Below, in pieces: positions 1 to 55,944 of a stretch of DNA of 64,000 nt. Where the stretch lies: assembly GCA_030018475.1 (NCBI GenBank), contig JASEFT010000001.1:15111-79110 (forward strand), written 5' to 3'. Below the pieces are notes generated by a model. That model was given only the letters and a program-made list of their open reading frames with translations, searched no databases and was not told the origin of the DNA. This stretch comes from Thermoplasmatota archaeon (GTDB lineage: Archaea; Thermoplasmatota; JASEFT01). Both the position numbers and the translations under genes were made by a program. Position 1 is the first letter of the stretch. Each line of letters begins with the position of its first letter.

Positions 1-951
1 GGCAGTCATGAGAAAGTCTCTGATAAAGATGCTAGAAATCTTTTAGGAATGCCTTTAAATTATATTTCTAGTAGCTCTAAATATCCTAATGAGTTTGAAT
101 ATGTAGGTAGTACTTCAAGAGGTACTGAAGTAAAGCTCAATAAAACATATCTAGAAGCTGATTTTAGAATATTAATTGGCGATGTAGAGCTCCATTATTT
201 TGCAGGATATGGCGGCGGAAGAAAATCTATTTTGCCAGGTGTTTCTGCACATGAAACTATTCAGAGCAATCACAAGCTAATGTTCGATAGAAACTGCAGA
301 CTAGGTAATTTGGAAAATAATCCTGTTCATTTAGATATGCTAGAAGCTTACGAGCTTGCAAACGTAGATTTTTTAGTTAATGTAGTGCAGAATGCGCAGC
401 GCAAACTTGTTGGCGTGTATGCTGGTAGCCATGACGCTTTTTACAAATGCGTTGAGCTCGTTGATAGAATGTGTAAAGTAAAAATATCTGAAAAACCAGA
501 TATTGTAGTTGCAGCTGCTGATGGTCATCCTCACGATATTGATTTCTATCAAGCAATTAAAGCTATTCAGACAGTTATTGAGGTTATAAAAGAAGGTGGA
601 GTGCTAATTCTTGTATGCAAATGCTCTAATGGTATTGGAAGCGATATATTTTATCAAGCAATGCAAAAATATAGTAGTAGTGACGAGGTAAAAGCTCATT
701 TACTTGAAAATTTTGTTATGGGTGTGCATAAAGCTTATTATTTACTTAAAGCTCTTGAAAAATTAAATATTATTTTAGTTTCTGAAATAGAAAGAAATAT
801 TGTAGAGCATGTTTTTAAATTAAGGTACGCAAAGAACATAGAGGCTGCCTTAAATTTAGCATTTGAACTTGTAGGCAAAGACTCAAATATTTTAGTTTCG
901 CCTAACGGAAGTACAACTCTTGTAGAGCTAAATCGTAATAAGAATGTTTAG
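1..951 (+). CDS. LarA-like (lactate racemase family, DUF2088) protein, 5' partial (continues upstream of window)
   Basis: Open frame from nt 1 with no upstream stop in the window. Motif HYFAGYGGGRK...H resembles the LarA H-x-F-x-G-x-x-GG-x-K nickel-pincer-cofactor binding region. Overlaps the next gene by 8 nt. Confidence 0.5.
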   Translation, partial: GSHEKVSDKDARNLLGMPLNYISSSSKYPNEFEYVGSTSRGTEVKLNKTYLEADFRILIGDVELHYFAGYGGGRKSILPGVSAHETIQSNHKLMFDRNCRLGNLENNPVHLDMLEAYELANVDFLVNVVQNAQRKLVGVYAGSHDAFYKCVELVDRMCKVKISEKPDIVVAAADGHPHDIDFYQAIKAIQTVIEVIKEGGVLILVCKCSNGIGSDIFYQAMQKYSSSDEVKAHLLENFVMGVHKAYYLLKALEKLNIILVSEIERNIVEHVFKLRYAKNIEAALNLAFELVGKDSNILVSPNGSTTLVELNRNKNV

Positions 952-2029
952 ATCTTTGTATTCTTTTGGTGTTGAAAAAGTCAAATGCAGGGTCTGTGGG
1001 AAAGAAGGTATAGAAACATCAAAAACTCTCGCGGTATGCTCCAACTGCATTAAAAGTAGATGGCAAGAGGCAGAGCCTTTGGTTAAAGAAGCACACTCAA
1101 ATATAAGGGGAAAATTTTCTATGCCTATTGAGCCACCTAAAAGTGAAGGTGGTATTGATTGCGGGCTATGCTTAAACAACTGCAAGCTCAAGTCTGACGA
1201 AATAGGGTATTGCGGGATAAGAGTTAATAGAAACGGTAGAATTGAAAGTCTTGTTGGCAATAATAATGCAGTTCTAGAATGGTACTATGATGCTCTACCA
1301 ACGAATTGCGTTGCAATGGAGTTCTGCGAAAATCGCAAGCTCAGCTACCAGTACAAGAACTTAGCGGTGTTTTATGGCGCTTGTAGCTTTAATTGCCTTT
1401 TCTGTCAGAACTGGCATTATCGTCACTTAGTGAAAGAGCTGAGACCTGTAATGAGTGCAAATGAACTCGCCTCTAAAGTAGATGGAAGCACAAAGTGCGT
1501 TTGCTATTTTGGCGGCGATCCTACACCTCAAATTCTGCATGCAATTGAAACCAGTAAAATTATTCTAGGAACTAGAAATGATGTAAGAATATGTTTTGAA
1601 ACTAATGGTAGCATGAGCAGAAGTATAGTTAAAAAAGCTGCTGAGCTAGCTTTCCAATCCAAAGGTACTATTAAATTCGATTTGAAAGCTCATACTGAAG
1701 AGCTCAATATTGCGCTATGCAGCGTTTCAAATAAAAACACTCTCGCTAATTTCGAATGGCTTGCAGAAAACTTTAGTTCTGATTATAATTTCCTAGTCGC
1801 AAGTACTTTACTTGTCCCCGGCTACGTTGATGAAAAAGAAGTCGAGAATATTGCAAAATTTATCTCTGCGCTAAGCAAAAAAATTCCATATAATTTACTT
1901 GCATTTCATCCACAGTTTTATATGACCGATATGCCCGTAACCTCAAAAGAGCTTGCTTTTAAATGCTATAAAATAGCAACTAAATATTTAGAAAATGTAA
2001 GAATTGGTAATGTGCATTTGCTGGTGTGA
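944..2029 (+). CDS. radical SAM enzyme (PflA/glycyl-radical-activase-like) with N-terminal Cys-rich extension
   Basis: CSFNCLFCQNW matches CxxxCxxC. Extra CxxC...CxxC and CGLCLNNC...C cluster motifs lie upstream. 361 aa; translationally coupled to the LarA-like gene. Confidence 0.7.
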   Translation: MFRSLYSFGVEKVKCRVCGKEGIETSKTLAVCSNCIKSRWQEAEPLVKEAHSNIRGKFSMPIEPPKSEGGIDCGLCLNNCKLKSDEIGYCGIRVNRNGRIESLVGNNNAVLEWYYDALPTNCVAMEFCENRKLSYQYKNLAVFYGACSFNCLFCQNWHYRHLVKELRPVMSANELASKVDGSTKCVCYFGGDPTPQILHAIETSKIILGTRNDVRICFETNGSMSRSIVKKAAELAFQSKGTIKFDLKAHTEELNIALCSVSNKNTLANFEWLAENFSSDYNFLVASTLLVPGYVDEKEVENIAKFISALSKKIPYNLLAFHPQFYMTDMPVTSKELAFKCYKIATKYLENVRIGNVHLLV

Positions 2030-6397: not shown

Positions 6398-7180
6398 ATG
6401 AGACTAAAAGTCGCGATAGTTCAAGGTGCTCCTTCAACATGCAACAAAGAAGAAAATTTAAAATTTATGGAGAGTAAAATTAGAAGAAGCGAAGCAGAGC
6501 TAATAGTATTTCCCGAGCTATTCCTTACGGGCTATGAATGTGACGATAGATTTTCTGAACTTGCGGAACCTTTAGAAGGCGAAAGTATGAGTAGAATTAC
6601 AAAACTTGCGCAATCGAAAAACTGCTATGTGATTTTCGGTATGCCTGAGTTAGCAGGAAAATCTGTGTATAACTCCAGTGTCTTGGTAACATGCGATGGA
6701 TTGGCAAAGAGCTATAGAAAAATCCATCTACCGCATTTCTGGAAATTCAAAGAGAAATCTTATTTTAGGGAGGGCAAGGATCCTGTTATTGCGAATACTA
6801 AATTTGGCAAATTGGGTATGATGATATGCTACGATTTGTTCTTTCCAGAACTTGCTAAATTCTATGCCCTTAAAGGCGCGAATATTATAATTTGTATTTC
6901 CGCAGCTCCAGTGCAGAGCCAGAGATATTTTGAAGTTTTGACTCAAGCGAGAGCATTAGAAAACACAGTGTTTTTGGTTTATGCAAATCTTGTAAGCAGA
7001 GAAAAAAAACTTACATTTTGGGGTGGTAGCAGAGTTATAAATCCTTTAGGAAAATTAATAGCAACTGCAGGCGGTAAACCTTGTGTTTTAGAATGTGTTT
7101 TAGACCTTGCAGAAGTTAAGAGTGCAAGAAAGCAAAGGCCTGTCCTCAGAGATACTAAACTATCGTTTTTCCACGCCTAA
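6398..7180 (+). CDS. carbon-nitrogen hydrolase (nitrilase superfamily) protein
   Basis: Glu-Lys-Cys triad context (FPELFLTGYE, KIHL, MICYDLFFPE). 260 aa. Divergently arranged with nadE. Confidence 0.75.
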   Translation: MRLKVAIVQGAPSTCNKEENLKFMESKIRRSEAELIVFPELFLTGYECDDRFSELAEPLEGESMSRITKLAQSKNCYVIFGMPELAGKSVYNSSVLVTCDGLAKSYRKIHLPHFWKFKEKSYFREGKDPVIANTKFGKLGMMICYDLFFPELAKFYALKGANIIICISAAPVQSQRYFEVLTQARALENTVFLVYANLVSREKKLTFWGGSRVINPLGKLIATAGGKPCVLECVLDLAEVKSARKQRPVLRDTKLSFFHA

Positions 7181-7222
7181 CAGCTAATGAAAACGCTATG
7201 CTGACTGCTACCAACACGACAG

Positions 7223-7882
7223 TTAAGCCACCATTAACCCACATGATCCGGTAACTAAGTTCCACCCCGCCTCTTTGATTCTTACTCCTTTCACCCAAGT
7301 ATCATACTGTGCTATATCACATGTAATTCTTCCGGGATAAAAATAACCATCTCCCTTGGCTTGCAGATGAACATCACACCACCAATCTATATAGATCTTG
7401 CATCCTGGAGATGGGAAAGATACATTAGAATAAATGTAATAGAATATTTCCCCCTGCTCTTTGTGGATCATACTTAATACGATATACTTTTTTTGGTGTT
7501 TGATATAATTTTCTGTGAATATATCTACTTTCCCATTTCCTACAACTTTCAGAGCTTTGCCTCTTTCTGTATCAATTACATCGTAAGTGGCATTTCCATA
7601 AATAGTAAGATTCTCAATAAAAGGTGGGAGTTGCCCATCGACTTTTGGGTTCTCAATAAATTCTGACCAATCGGTAATGTTGATTATCACTGGCAAAGGT
7701 AAAAGCAGGGTAAAGTTTTCACTATTTGGTGGAGAGATACAGACAGTGTAATTGTAGTAACATTCTTCCCGTAATCCTAGTGTGGCACGCCATTGCTTCC
7801 AGAAATAATAATACCCGCCAATCAAAGATACCAAACACAAGGACACGATCAATAATATAAAAATCTTTTTCTTGTAGAGCAT
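7223..7882 (-). CDS. membrane-anchored hypothetical protein
   Basis: Single N-terminal TM (IFILLIVSLCLVSLIGGYYYFW). Extracytoplasmic domain has N-glycosylation sequons. Confidence 0.4.
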   Translation of the reverse strand: MLYKKKIFILLIVSLCLVSLIGGYYYFWKQWRATLGLREECYYNYTVCISPPNSENFTLLLPLPVIINITDWSEFIENPKVDGQLPPFIENLTIYGNATYDVIDTERGKALKVVGNGKVDIFTENYIKHQKKYIVLSMIHKEQGEIFYYIYSNVSFPSPGCKIYIDWWCDVHLQAKGDGYFYPGRITCDIAQYDTWVKGVRIKEAGWNLVTGSCGLMVA

Positions 7883-7888
7883 CTTGTT

Positions 7889-8332
7889 TCACCAAATTTT
7901 TTCAAATTGTATTTCTGTATTGAGTTGTGCTAGACAGGAAGAACAATAATGCATTCTCAGCGAAGATATGTTACCCTGATAGTGTTCTTTTCCGTCCATA
8001 GCACAACCACAGGTAGTGTCATAGAGACCACAGTTATGCCCCAATTCATGCGTAAAAAACTGTACTTGTCTTTTCCAATATTTGCCCCCTGTCGAAACAG
8101 CATCCCAGTATATCATGTGATCAAAAAGTACGAATGTGTTTCCTGGTCGATAACCTTTCCCCCTATCAGTTTCGTCAATACCGCTTTTATGTGCCATTAT
8201 ACAGTACCTTAACTCAAAGGTAAAAGGGAAGAAACGAAAGGTGGCTAGGTGAAGGACGTAAGCCTCATTCTGTTCAGCCTTTCCTATTACTAGAAAAAGG
8301 CTTGATAGCATGTGACTAAGCGCCCTACTCAC
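7889..8332 (-). CDS. amzA: archaemetzincin-like zinc metallopeptidase
   Basis: HELGHNCGLYDTTCGCAM followed by a downstream CSSC. This fits the archaemetzincin pattern HExxHxxG...C...CxM...CxxC. Confidence 0.55.
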   Translation of the reverse strand: MSRALSHMLSSLFLVIGKAEQNEAYVLHLATFRFFPFTFELRYCIMAHKSGIDETDRGKGYRPGNTFVLFDHMIYWDAVSTGGKYWKRQVQFFTHELGHNCGLYDTTCGCAMDGKEHYQGNISSLRMHYCSSCLAQLNTEIQFEKIW

Positions 8333-8459
8333 AGTCTTGAGCTAGTCATCCTGTTCTTTGGGCTTGCTCTAGAGTAAGATAGCCGTTTCACCAAATCTCT
8401 TTAGAACTTCATGCTCTTGCAATCATCATATACTAAAGAGCTGTGCCGTTTCTGCGCTT

Positions 8460-8745
8460 AACTTAAGGCTCTCGCCTTGCAAGCTTGCGCTTGCGCTCCT
8501 GCTCTCAGAGGGAGGACTTTCCTCAGAAGCCTTTTTCTTTTCTTTCCAAGAAAAGAAAAAGCCTTCAGGGAAAAAAGAAAAGAAGCTACGCAATTAGTAA
8601 TTGTTATTGCATTAGCAATCTTCGTATTCTCAAGGGGTTGCAAGGCAATCCCTTGCTTCTTTTTCTTTTCCACAGAGCGCTTTTCTTTTTCTTTTAAAGA
8701 AAAAAGAAAAGGGCTCCCGTGAGCTATCTGCCTTCTCCTAGCCAT
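8460..8745 (-). ncRNA. candidate structured ncRNA, copy B of a two-member family (unknown function)
   Basis: A series of near-perfect hairpins (GGAA and CUUG loops) with an enclosing helix. ~70% identical to the plus-strand element at 44563-44856, with compensatory stem changes. A TATA-like box (plus 8746-8760) lies just 5' on the minus strand. The ORFs that overlap it are low-complexity artefacts. Confidence 0.5.
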
Positions 8746-8794
8746 CTAATATTATATATGAGCTTGTTAAAAAATCTTTCGGCAGAAATGTTTC

Positions 8795-9673
8795 TTAAAC
8801 CAAAATTTTCGCTCTTTCGCCAATAGAGCATATATAGACATGTCCGTATTCTCTCAGCATCCCAACCAATTTCTTAGTATCGCCAATTGCGAACACAGAA
8901 TTTCCGAGCATAGTTTGGGCTGCGTAACCATGTGCTTGGCATTTCTCTACAACTTCAATTACCTTTTTTAGTGCCAGACCTGTTTTTAATGCAAATTCAT
9001 TTGAAACAGCGAAAAAGTTTTCGATACTCATCTTTCTAATCAATTTTTTCAAGCATTTTTCGCCCCAGAAATTAATTTTAGCTCTTAAACTTGGGTTTGT
9101 AAGAACGGATTTTGTCTCTATTTTTCTACCTACTACAGAAATTACAATTTTATTTCCATTGTGCCATGTGATATTTTTAATCAAGCCAAATGGTGGCAGA
9201 CCCTCTTTCAATCTTATTTCAAATCCTCCTATACTTTGCGCAACCACATCTCCCAAACCTGTTTTGCAATAAAGTTCCGCTTTGTGCGCTATAGCTACAA
9301 GAACTTCGTAGCTTAATCCTAGTCTTAAAGCTTCGTTTAATGCAAGTGCTGTAGACAGAGCGCCTGCACCACTAATGCCAAGACCCTGTGAGATAGGGAG
9401 TTGGAATGAGCTCTTCACTCTAACATTTAAATTCTCATTACTCACAAGTTCTTCAGCTACTTTTCTAGTTACCTCAGCTTTTGCTTTTTTATTGTTTAAA
9501 AAAATCACTATTTTTCTAGTGGCACTTCTTTCCACCTCTGCCTCTGTGACTACTCCCTCAGACAAGCACAAACCTGCGCCTCTAGAGCCTTTTCTGCGAA
9601 AATCTTTTGCAGTATTGCCTATTCTGAAGAATCCTGTAATATGCCCTGGTGCGAAAGCTCTTGCAACTCTCAT
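8795..9673 (-). CDS. GHMP kinase family protein, probable archaeal pantoate kinase
   Basis: GHMP motif GLGISGAGALSTALALNEAL. 292 aa. 4-nt overlap with coaBC, as in archaeal CoA-pathway gene pairs. Confidence 0.55.
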   Translation of the reverse strand: MRVARAFAPGHITGFFRIGNTAKDFRRKGSRGAGLCLSEGVVTEAEVERSATRKIVIFLNNKKAKAEVTRKVAEELVSNENLNVRVKSSFQLPISQGLGISGAGALSTALALNEALRLGLSYEVLVAIAHKAELYCKTGLGDVVAQSIGGFEIRLKEGLPPFGLIKNITWHNGNKIVISVVGRKIETKSVLTNPSLRAKINFWGEKCLKKLIRKMSIENFFAVSNEFALKTGLALKKVIEVVEKCQAHGYAAQTMLGNSVFAIGDTKKLVGMLREYGHVYICSIGERAKILV

Positions 9674-10875
9674 AAATCTTCTTTTATCTTATCTAATATT
9701 CTATCTGCAATTTTTTCTTTTCTATCTTTGACAAAAATAAAATTTTTATTTCTATCTATAATTAAAACCTCGCTTGATTCATGGCTAATATTTTTCAAAT
9801 CGTTAGCTACAATTAAATCTAACTTTTCTGATTTTAGCTTTCTATACGCTCGCTCTAAGAGCACTTCTCTAGATACGTTACTTTCTAGTTTAAACCCGAC
9901 AAGATACTTTTTATAATCCTTTCTTATTAATTCTAATATCTTAGGAGCTTGTGTCAAGCTCAGTAATAAATGTTTTTTTTCGGAAGATAATTTACCTGCT
10001 TCCTTTTTAGGTATGTAATCAGAGATTGCAGCAGGACAAATAATAACATTATAAGAAGCTAAATTTTTTAACTTGCGTCTCAAATCGTCAGTAGATTGGA
10101 ATCTTTCTGTTTTAAGGTAGTTCGGAGCTTGCTCTAAAGCTGAGCCGTAAAGTAATTCAACCTCAGCACCACGTTCAAACGCGCACTTTGCAATTTCTAT
10201 ACCTGTTCTTCCTGAACTTTTTGCAGCTATAAAGCGCACATCATCGATAGGCTCAGCGGTAGAGCCTGCTATCACCAATATTTTTTTGTTTTCTAAATCG
10301 TTTTTCCATAGTTTCCTTATTACTCTCTCAACTATTTCTCCTATACTAGCGAGTTTTGCTTTTCCTTCTTCCACCCTGGGCTCTATAAATTCTATACCTA
10401 ACTTTTTCAACTTCTTTATATTCTCTTGCACAATTTCATGTTCATACATACTAGAATGCATCGCAGGCACAATGATAATTGGTATTTTAGAGCTGAGCGC
10501 TGTAGTTGCAAATGTAGTTACTGGCGTATCATCGATACCACATGCTATTTTAGAAATAGTATTAGCTGTGCATGGTGCAATAAGCAGAAGCGAAGCTTTA
10601 CTCTTTGTTGAGCCACATAGCGATACATGCTCAACTTTACCAGTTATTTCAGTGATAGGTTTGTTGCCGGTAGCGAACTCAACAGCATTGGGATGGATTA
10701 TTTTATGAGCTTCAAAGCTCATTACTGCAAAAACCTCTGCGCCATGCCTTATAAGCTCTCTAGCCAGTTTCACAGTCTCTACAGCTGCAATACTGCCTGT
10801 AATTCCTAGAACGATTGTTTTACCTTCTAGCTTAGCACTTTTGGTAGAGCGCAACTCTTCGCTTGGATGAAGCAT
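9670..10875 (-). CDS. coaBC: bifunctional phosphopantothenoylcysteine decarboxylase / phosphopantothenate-cysteine ligase
   Basis: N-terminal flavoprotein motif (IVLGITGSIAAVETVKLARELIRHGAEV) and C-terminal CoaB region (GSTAEPIDDVRFIAAKSSG). 401 aa. Confidence 0.85.
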   Translation of the reverse strand: MLHPSEELRSTKSAKLEGKTIVLGITGSIAAVETVKLARELIRHGAEVFAVMSFEAHKIIHPNAVEFATGNKPITEITGKVEHVSLCGSTKSKASLLLIAPCTANTISKIACGIDDTPVTTFATTALSSKIPIIIVPAMHSSMYEHEIVQENIKKLKKLGIEFIEPRVEEGKAKLASIGEIVERVIRKLWKNDLENKKILVIAGSTAEPIDDVRFIAAKSSGRTGIEIAKCAFERGAEVELLYGSALEQAPNYLKTERFQSTDDLRRKLKNLASYNVIICPAAISDYIPKKEAGKLSSEKKHLLLSLTQAPKILELIRKDYKKYLVGFKLESNVSREVLLERAYRKLKSEKLDLIVANDLKNISHESSEVLIIDRNKNFIFVKDRKEKIADRILDKIKEDL

Positions 10876-44464: not shown

Positions 44465-44562
44465 TCTAAAAACTATAATATACTGGAACGTTTATTTAGC
44501 TATCGCGATTTAGCTATCAAGGAAAAACTTCGTTTTTCCTCTTATCATTCGCCTCTGCTTAC

Positions 44563-44856
44563 GCGGGCTCATGAGGTAAAGGATAGCCTACCAGGCTTCG
44601 GACCAGCCCTTTCTTTTCTCTTAAAAAGAGAAAAGAAAGCGACTGGCGGGAAGAAAAGAGAAACAAGGGATTACTTCGTAATCCCTTAATAATACGAAGA
44701 TTGCTACGCAATTACTAGTACTAATTGCGTAGTAACTAACGAAAGTTCTTTTCTTTTTCCTGGAGAGACCTGGAAGTCGGGGTTCGATTGGCGTTGAGGC
44801 GCTTCACGCCTCAACTCATTTTCAAGGCTATGTCTCGAAAATCCCCGTGAGCCCGT
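44563..44856 (+). ncRNA. candidate structured ncRNA, copy A of a two-member family (unknown function); lies upstream of orc1/cdc6
   Basis: Terminal 11-bp helix (GCGGGCUCAUG/CGUGAGCCCGU). Perfect hairpins with loop AAAAA, UUCG (GGGAUUACUUCGUAAUCCC), CTAGTAC, and GUUGAGGCG-CUUCA-CGCCUCAAC. A closing helix around the central hairpins. Homologous to 8460-8745(-). An upstream ctataatata box and an extra UUCG hairpin lie at 44521-44539. Confidence 0.55.
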
Positions 44857-55870: not shown

Positions 55871-55944
55871 TGCGTCTGCCGGGATTTGAACCCGGGCTAT
55901 GAGCTTGGGAAGCTCAAGTCCTAACCAGACTAGACTACAGACGC
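55871..55944 (-). tRNA. tRNA-Gly (anticodon CCC), no encoded CCA
   Basis: Manual cloverleaf fold. Acceptor GCGUCUG/CAGACGC, D-stem GUCU/GGAC, anticodon stem UGAGC/GCUCA with loop UUCCCAA, T-stem CCGGG/CCCGG with loop UUCAAAU, discriminator A. Confidence 0.9.

Follow-up and report, generated by a model that had tools for sequence, protein, structure and literature searches.

What does the segment at positions 8460-8745 on the minus strand of this archaeal DNA encode? The segment lies in a 64,000-nt stretch of contig JASEFT010000001.1 from a Thermoplasmatota archaeon, analysed here over its full length and hereafter called the window. An earlier note had interpreted the segment as the second, divergent copy (copy B) of a structured noncoding RNA (ncRNA) gene, whose other copy (copy A) sits 36 kb away. 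We found that the flagged interval is the 5' half of an archaeal RNase P RNA gene, not a separate RNA gene, and that copy A is an intron of a tRNA-Arg gene. Overall, these data make it likely that copy B is a retained expansion of helix P3 of the RNase P RNA and descends from a family of tRNA introns.

An Rfam scan of the window matched 8247-8538(-) to the archaeal RNase P RNA family RF00373 with 133.7 bits, as compared to a gathering score of 84. The conserved regions CR-I (GAGGAAAGUCC) and CR-V (ACAGAAUGAGGCUUA) are both present in this RNA, as is ACAGAA..GGCUUA. In the Rfam alignment CR-I comes right after a 14-bp hairpin with a GGAA loop, and the P1 and P2 positions of the model fit poorly there; because P3 carries an insert of ~180 nt, the model aligns only from 8538 on and the true 5' end is missed. 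Three helices close around the flagged segment: P1, in which GGCUAGGAGAAGG (8743-8731) pairs with CCUUCACCUAGCC (8255-8243) over 13 positions with one mismatch; P2, in which GAUAGC (8728-8723) pairs with GCUAUC (8309-8304) over 6 bp; and the base of P3, in which the 5' strand CGGGAGCC (8712-8719) pairs over 8 bp with the 3' strand GGCUUCUG (8531-8524), directly followed by CR-I. The complete RNase P RNA gene, of archaeal type A, therefore spans 8743-8243(-) (501 nt) and holds the whole flagged segment. The minimum-energy fold of 8230-8748 brings both ends of the RNA into pairing (z = -5.4), and folding of the isolated domain likewise yields the P3 base helix in its minimum-energy structure, with a pair probability of 0.54.

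The gene neighbouring the RNase P RNA in the window encodes pantoate kinase, and an RNase P RNA downstream of pantoate kinase was also found in two related loci, i.e., L001, from a sister genome (kinase 71% identical), and L007 (kinase 70% identical). In L007 the RNase P RNA is ~333 nt long and has an ordinary 8-bp P3 (CGACGACC-UGCA-AGGGUUGUCG). The RNase P RNA of L001 is ~405 nt long, with ~110 nt in the P3 loop; this insert consists of two polypurine/polypyrimidine hairpins and is without the AAUACGAAGAUUGCUA core. P3 in these three loci forms a series from a plain 8-bp helix (L007) to an insert of ~110 nt (L001) and one of ~180 nt (the window, with its 501-nt RNA). The Rfam matches in L001 and L007 start no more than 4 bases from the equivalent GGCU; in L003, L008 and L009 Rfam found no RNase P RNA next to pantoate kinase.

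When the window sequence was compared with these relatives, P1, P2 and P3 were found to covary. As compared to L007, P1 shows one A-U to G-C change, and the P3 base (CGACGACC/GGUUGUCG in L007) shows double changes at three pairs; as these changes in P1 and in the P3 base are compensatory, the helices are evidently real and still form around the insert. A candidate promoter is shared as well: the motif TTTTTTAA, whose position (8774-8767(-)) is 24-31 nt ahead of the first base of P1 (8743), is kept at equal distance in L001 (ACTTTTTTAACA) and in L007 (GTTTTTTAATAG) and probably acts as the TATA box of the RNase P RNA gene. The earlier note had instead pointed to a TATA-like box at 8746-8760; lying only 3-17 nt ahead of P1, that stretch is too close, and TTTTTTAA fits better. 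The same note had dismissed three overlapping open reading frames (ORFs) in the segment as artefacts, and we agree, as they have no Pfam match and lie over the RNA gene.

Three other features of these RNase P loci were observed. An extra hairpin (AAGCCUUUUUCUAGUAAUAGGAAAGGCU) is present between the 3' strand of P2 and ACAGAA in the window (8276-8303(-)), in L001 (6771-6797) and in L007 (1597-1631); it varies in length and sequence among the three, and Rfam counts it as an insertion. An ORF of 147 aa in the window (7889-8332(-)) overlaps the RNase P RNA at its 3' end (8243-8332); this ORF shows a weak, sub-threshold match to Peptidase_M54 (archaemetzincin), and its real start is probably an internal Met. 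In L001, the last bases of the RNase P RNA (CTTACGTCCTT) recur 20 nt downstream inside a hairpin (6810-6880) that adjoins a phage-type integrase gene (6895-7696); an element may have integrated here, with the 3' end of the gene for RNase P RNA serving as the attachment site.

In the window, the terminal loop of P3 is replaced by a multi-helix expansion of ~180 nt. Most of it is copy B proper (8569-8719(-), ~150 nt), which was delimited by alignment to the tRNA-Arg intron and by a covariance model (see below). Copy B is composed of hairpin 1 (polypyrimidine/polypurine), a purine strand, the GGGAUUGC hairpin, a conserved AAUACGAAGAU junction, a GCUA..GCAAU/AUUGC..UAGC hairpin and a closing pyrimidine strand; its GGGAUUGC/GCAACCCC helix contains an A.C mismatch. 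The expansion also includes hairpin 3 (8531-8561(-)), a polypyrimidine/polypurine module of 14 bp with a GGAA loop. This hairpin had been noted before as an extra hairpin of B; it does exist at 8561-8531 and has no counterpart in copy A, but it is part of the P3 expansion of RNase P RNA and is shared with the sister genome, where its homologue is located at 6512-6540 of L001. Two folds of the isolated P3 domain were predicted at nearly equal energies, i.e., a nested rod on the P3 base, in which strands of hairpins 1 and 3 pair mutually atop that base (-72.8 kcal/mol), and three local hairpins (-72.1 kcal/mol), so that the calculated folding energies do not choose between them. Against Rfam, the B region matched RNase P only, apart from chance microRNA-like matches to the purine/pyrimidine hairpins.

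The homology of copies A and B, proposed on first inspection, was borne out. The exact 16-mer AATACGAAGATTGCTA occurs in the window only at 8613-8628(-) and 44691-44706(+), and the two copies are 77% identical (101/131 ungapped positions in 136 columns; B 8719-8585, A 44603-44733). The homology does not extend over the whole interval 8460-8745 that had been aligned with A: 8719-8585 aligns, but 8460-8568 does not and falls mostly within the Rfam RNase P match at 8247-8538. A third copy is found in locus L012 (1028-1159), which belongs to the same genome as L001. RNAalifold, when run on these three sequences, gave a consensus of three hairpins with 41 pairs, seven of which change on both sides across A, L012 and B; these include compensatory changes in hairpin 1 and a single such pair in the GGGAUU(A/G)C hairpin, in agreement with the compensatory stem changes reported earlier. 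The small 5' hairpins that had been paired up between the copies, on the other hand, are not homologous: AGCCU/AGGCU in A consists of the 3' strand of the D-stem of a tRNA-Arg plus its anticodon stem, and GCUC/GAGC in B overlaps P2 (GAUAGC) and the 5' strand of P3 (CGGGAGCC).

A covariance model (R1) was built from the alignment of A, L012 and B and run on the window, a check that the earlier note had suggested. R1 scored its three copies at 137-151 bits (B 137.3 at 8585-8719, A 151.2 at 44603-44733); elsewhere in the window it gave only matches of at most 48 bits, which overlapped the A and B loci on either strand. Within the core, A and L012 are 91% identical, as compared to 83% for A and B and 79% for B and L012. 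A and B agree throughout the 17-nt junction GAAUACGAAGAUUGCUA, and L012 has 16 nt of it in common with them. Scans with an exact core pattern gave no match in viral contigs, one in GTDB genomes (on a contig of the bacterium Anaerococcus, taken for chance; the GTDB pattern required AATTGCGTAG and would miss L012-like copies reading AATTGTGTAG) and 16 in JGI metagenomes, all by chance.

Copy A itself is the first of two introns in a tRNA-Arg(UCG) gene (44565-44855(+); exons 44565-44601, 44768-44788 and 44842-44855), which was delineated with a scan for bulge-helix-bulge (BHB) motifs and with ARAGORN. This gene is unseen by ARAGORN and by Rfam on the raw window sequence, and copy A alone matched no Rfam family; once both introns are removed, ARAGORN calls a tRNA-Arg(tcg) cloverleaf. 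Intron 1 (44602-44767(+), 166 nt) is located at the canonical position 37/38 and shows the motif CCAGG-CUUC-[GGA].../...GGAG-[AGA]-CCUGG, with an exon helix (CCAGG/CCUGG), a central helix of 4 bp (CUUC/GGAG) and two bulges of 3 nt (GGA and AGA). Intron 2 (44789-44841(+), 53 nt) is located in the T-loop (59/60) and shows the motif CGGGG-UUCG-[AUU].../...CGAA-[AAU]-CCCCG (h=5, h'=2). The BHB scan of the window found two clean sites, both in this gene; the only other tRNA in the window is tRNA-Gly(CCC) at 55871-55944(-).

The tRNA-Arg gene lies upstream of a cdc6/orc1 gene. At the orthologous cdc6 loci, a tRNA-like sequence occupies the same place in L011, and the homologue of copy A is found in L012, where intron 2 is also present (1190-1242). 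A reading of copy A as a miniature RNase P-like paralogue, with P1-like and GAUAGC helices and a GGAAGUC motif, was considered and rejected, because the cloverleaf and the two BHB introns account for every flanking helix. Some archaeal introns encode a guide RNA, as the euryarchaeal tRNA-Trp intron encodes a box C/D RNA with a C box (RUGAUGA) and a D box (CUGA) near its ends. On reading by eye, no conserved box C/D or kink-turn motifs were seen, and neither A (44602-44767) nor B (8719-8569) contains UGAUGA.

The surroundings of the tRNA genes at the cdc6 loci showed further repeats and introns. The tRNA upstream of cdc6 in L011 is a tRNA-Val(CAC) (461-600(+)) that contains short introns at 483-512 and at 558-586; the latter occupies the same T-loop position as intron 2 of the tRNA-Arg in the window. 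In L012, three tandem repeats of ~57 nt (800-960(+)) lie just upstream of the tRNA-Arg gene, each opening with the 5' acceptor sequence of tRNA-Arg (GGGCUCAUGAUUCGGAUGA...), and the cluster of repeats and tRNA-Arg is bracketed by two alike long hairpins (AAACUCCGCGAC...GUCGCGGAGUUU) at 726-790 and 1268-1328. In the window, two copies of a direct repeat ATTTAGCTATC (44494-44519(+)) are located between a divergent ORF and the tRNA-Arg and cdc6 genes; the repeat could be a promoter element or an element resembling an origin recognition box.

R1 also gave matches of 29-55 bits that were clustered in L003, from a more distant relative. Two adjacent tRNA genes were found there, i.e., a tRNA-Asp(GUC) (9835-10170(-)) with a strict hBHBh' intron of 240 nt (10114-9875), and a tRNA-Val(CAC)-like gene (9078-9530(-)) with a T-loop intron of ~340 nt plus an intron in the D-region. 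The same region is present in L004 and L005, and the gene caller had put ORFs over both genes. The tRNA-Asp and tRNA-Val introns open, as A does, with CAGCC and a CUUUUCUUUUCUCU/AGAGAAAAGAAAAG hairpin. Such hairpins of 11 bp or more are confined to two places in the 64-kb window, the tRNA-Arg intron and the P3 insert of RNase P RNA; among the other fetched loci, tRNA introns and P3 of L001 are the sole places that carry them. This confinement of the shared hairpin modules to tRNA introns and P3 inserts indicates that B belongs to a lineage-specific family of tRNA introns, either as a member or as a mosaic of its modules.

If B is a retained P3 expansion that descends from this family, as we consider likely, an intron-family element, or some of its modules, would have entered the P3 loop before the window genome and its sister diverged; alternatively, entry could have occurred by recombination with a tRNA intron via shared purine/pyrimidine tracts. 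Sequence comparison places the 5' junction of B with the RNase P backbone between AGC and CC and the 3' junction within a shared UUCUUUUCUUUU tract, a position that would suit recombination through repeats. The insert would then be transcribed together with the rest of the RNase P RNA, from the promoter of that gene, would fold either as three side hairpins or as one long rod extending P3, and would project away from the catalytic core, much as the variable P3 extensions of other RNase P RNAs do.

Even with bulges relaxed to 2-4 nt, no convincing BHB motif was found at the borders of B or of the insert in L001; the candidates for B were of low complexity, and none was at the P3 base. As no splice motif flanks B and P3 still closes beneath it, the insert is most likely retained in the mature RNA, where it would form a peripheral expansion segment. 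Because helices are kept through paired substitutions, we infer that the fold itself is under constraint in both hosts. By default, the insert is best regarded as a tolerated expansion of selfish origin. The core identities further show that B is not a recent copy of the A present in the window, since A is closer to L012 (91%) than B is to either (83% and 79%). Either the ancestor of the window genome and L001 would have had the full P3 element and L001 would have lost modules, or B would have evolved faster.

Several observations weigh against this reading. The motif of copy A lacks the outer helix h', and the L012 orthologue is without a strict BHB at 37/38; therefore, the endonuclease of this lineage may accept relaxed motifs. 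The low-complexity tracts yield many spurious BHB-like pairings, among which a relaxed motif could hide. The core is known in only three copies, which makes the covariation statistics weak, and, judging by the core identities, transfer may have gone in either direction. The absence of modules from L001 may reflect loss and not an original lack, and all of the compared sequences are metagenome assemblies.

We also considered a bolder hypothesis, i.e., that a mobile member of the tRNA-intron family colonised the RNase P RNA gene and is either still spliced out of it or provides a module that links RNase P to intron-bearing pre-tRNAs; in our judgement it is rather unlikely. If it held and the element were spliced, an RNase P RNA would for the first time have been reported to carry an intron; if the element served as a link, a shared protein or the pairing of purine strands with pyrimidine strands would provide it.

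Taken by itself, the proposal that B is a true intron of RNase P RNA, excised through a relaxed or unrecognised motif with ligation of the exons, so that the mature RNA has a short P3, seems unlikely. It would be in line with the other members of the family, which are excised tRNA introns, and with copy A and its L012 orthologue, which work with incomplete BHB motifs. A candidate motif even exists, as UUUUCUUU-UUUC[UUU] pairs with GGAA[AGA]-AAAGAAAA to give a 4-bp helix with 3-nt bulges on either side, joining the pyrimidine strand of hairpin 1 to the purine strand of hairpin 3. However, this candidate is made of low-complexity U and A-G tracts, which are prone to chance motifs; the P3 base shows nothing BHB-like, no candidate motif is seen in the 110-nt insert that L001 carries at this site, and the P3 base helix is conserved under the insert.

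Very unlikely, in turn, is a function of the shared module in both hosts, whether as a platform for one protein or through pairing between strands of RNase P RNA and pre-tRNA that would couple 5' processing to splicing. The junction GAAUACGAAGAUUGCUA, invariant between A and B and nearly so in L012 while the surrounding stems drift with compensation, would fit such a function, as would the location of the element in the very enzyme that processes the pre-tRNAs bearing its relatives. Conversely, the RNase P RNA of L001 lacks the core and that of L007 lacks any insert, and hence the module is dispensable for RNase P; moreover, the core is known from two genomes only, and neither a candidate partner protein nor a pairing site was identified. 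Finally, the view of the earlier note that A and B are two copies of a free-standing ncRNA gene with their own promoters is scarcely credible, since, despite the helices conserved with compensatory changes and an AT-rich stretch upstream of B, B is nested in P1, P2 and the conserved P3 base, with P2 on one side and CR-I on the other, relatives whose RNase P RNA is without the element have the upstream promoter motif too, A is a tRNA-Arg intron bounded by BHB motifs, and neither the window, nor the other fetched loci, nor the exact-pattern scans of three public collections gave a further copy.

The location of one of its elements in the RNA subunit of RNase P shows that the tRNA-intron family can reach other structured RNAs. 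The three RNase P RNAs (no insert, 110 nt and 180 nt) represent a natural series for studying how an RNA enzyme gains an expansion segment, and the tRNA genes expose a Thermoplasmatota clade with large modular introns of 166, 240 and ~340 nt. These results also matter for the annotation of such genomes, as the tRNA-Arg gene escapes both ARAGORN and Rfam, and the RNase P RNA is cut short by Rfam.

As compared to known systems, the RNase P RNA of the window resembles archaeal type A RNase P RNA (RF00373) in its score above the gathering score, its CR-I, its covarying P1, P2 and P3 and its synteny with relatives, but it differs from an ordinary archaeal RNase P RNA in the multi-helix insert of ~180 nt in its P3 loop and in its length (501 nt vs ~333 nt in L007). 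Eukaryotic RNase P RNAs have a long P3, and those of Candida carry large insertions; peripheral helices tolerate inserts while the conserved core is kept. No shared sequence is known between these eukaryotic P3 and Candida expansions and the tRNA introns of their own genomes. In full-text literature searches, neither an intron nor an intron-derived element was found described for an archaeal RNase P RNA. Archaeal BHB introns are believed to pass from one tRNA gene to another. Intron transposition among tRNA genes has been described in Thermoproteales (Fujishima et al. 2010, as reviewed in PMC4090602), and the family found here resembles those transposing introns in that related introns occur at 37/38 and in the T-loop, and in tRNAs for Arg, Asp and Val. 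Unlike the BHB introns covered in that review, one member of the present family is located in an RNase P RNA and has no BHB motif, and the host belongs to the Thermoplasmatota and not to the Thermoproteales. The introns themselves also differ from those in PMC4090602, being long (166, 240 and ~340 nt) and modular, and built of polypyrimidine/polypurine hairpins.
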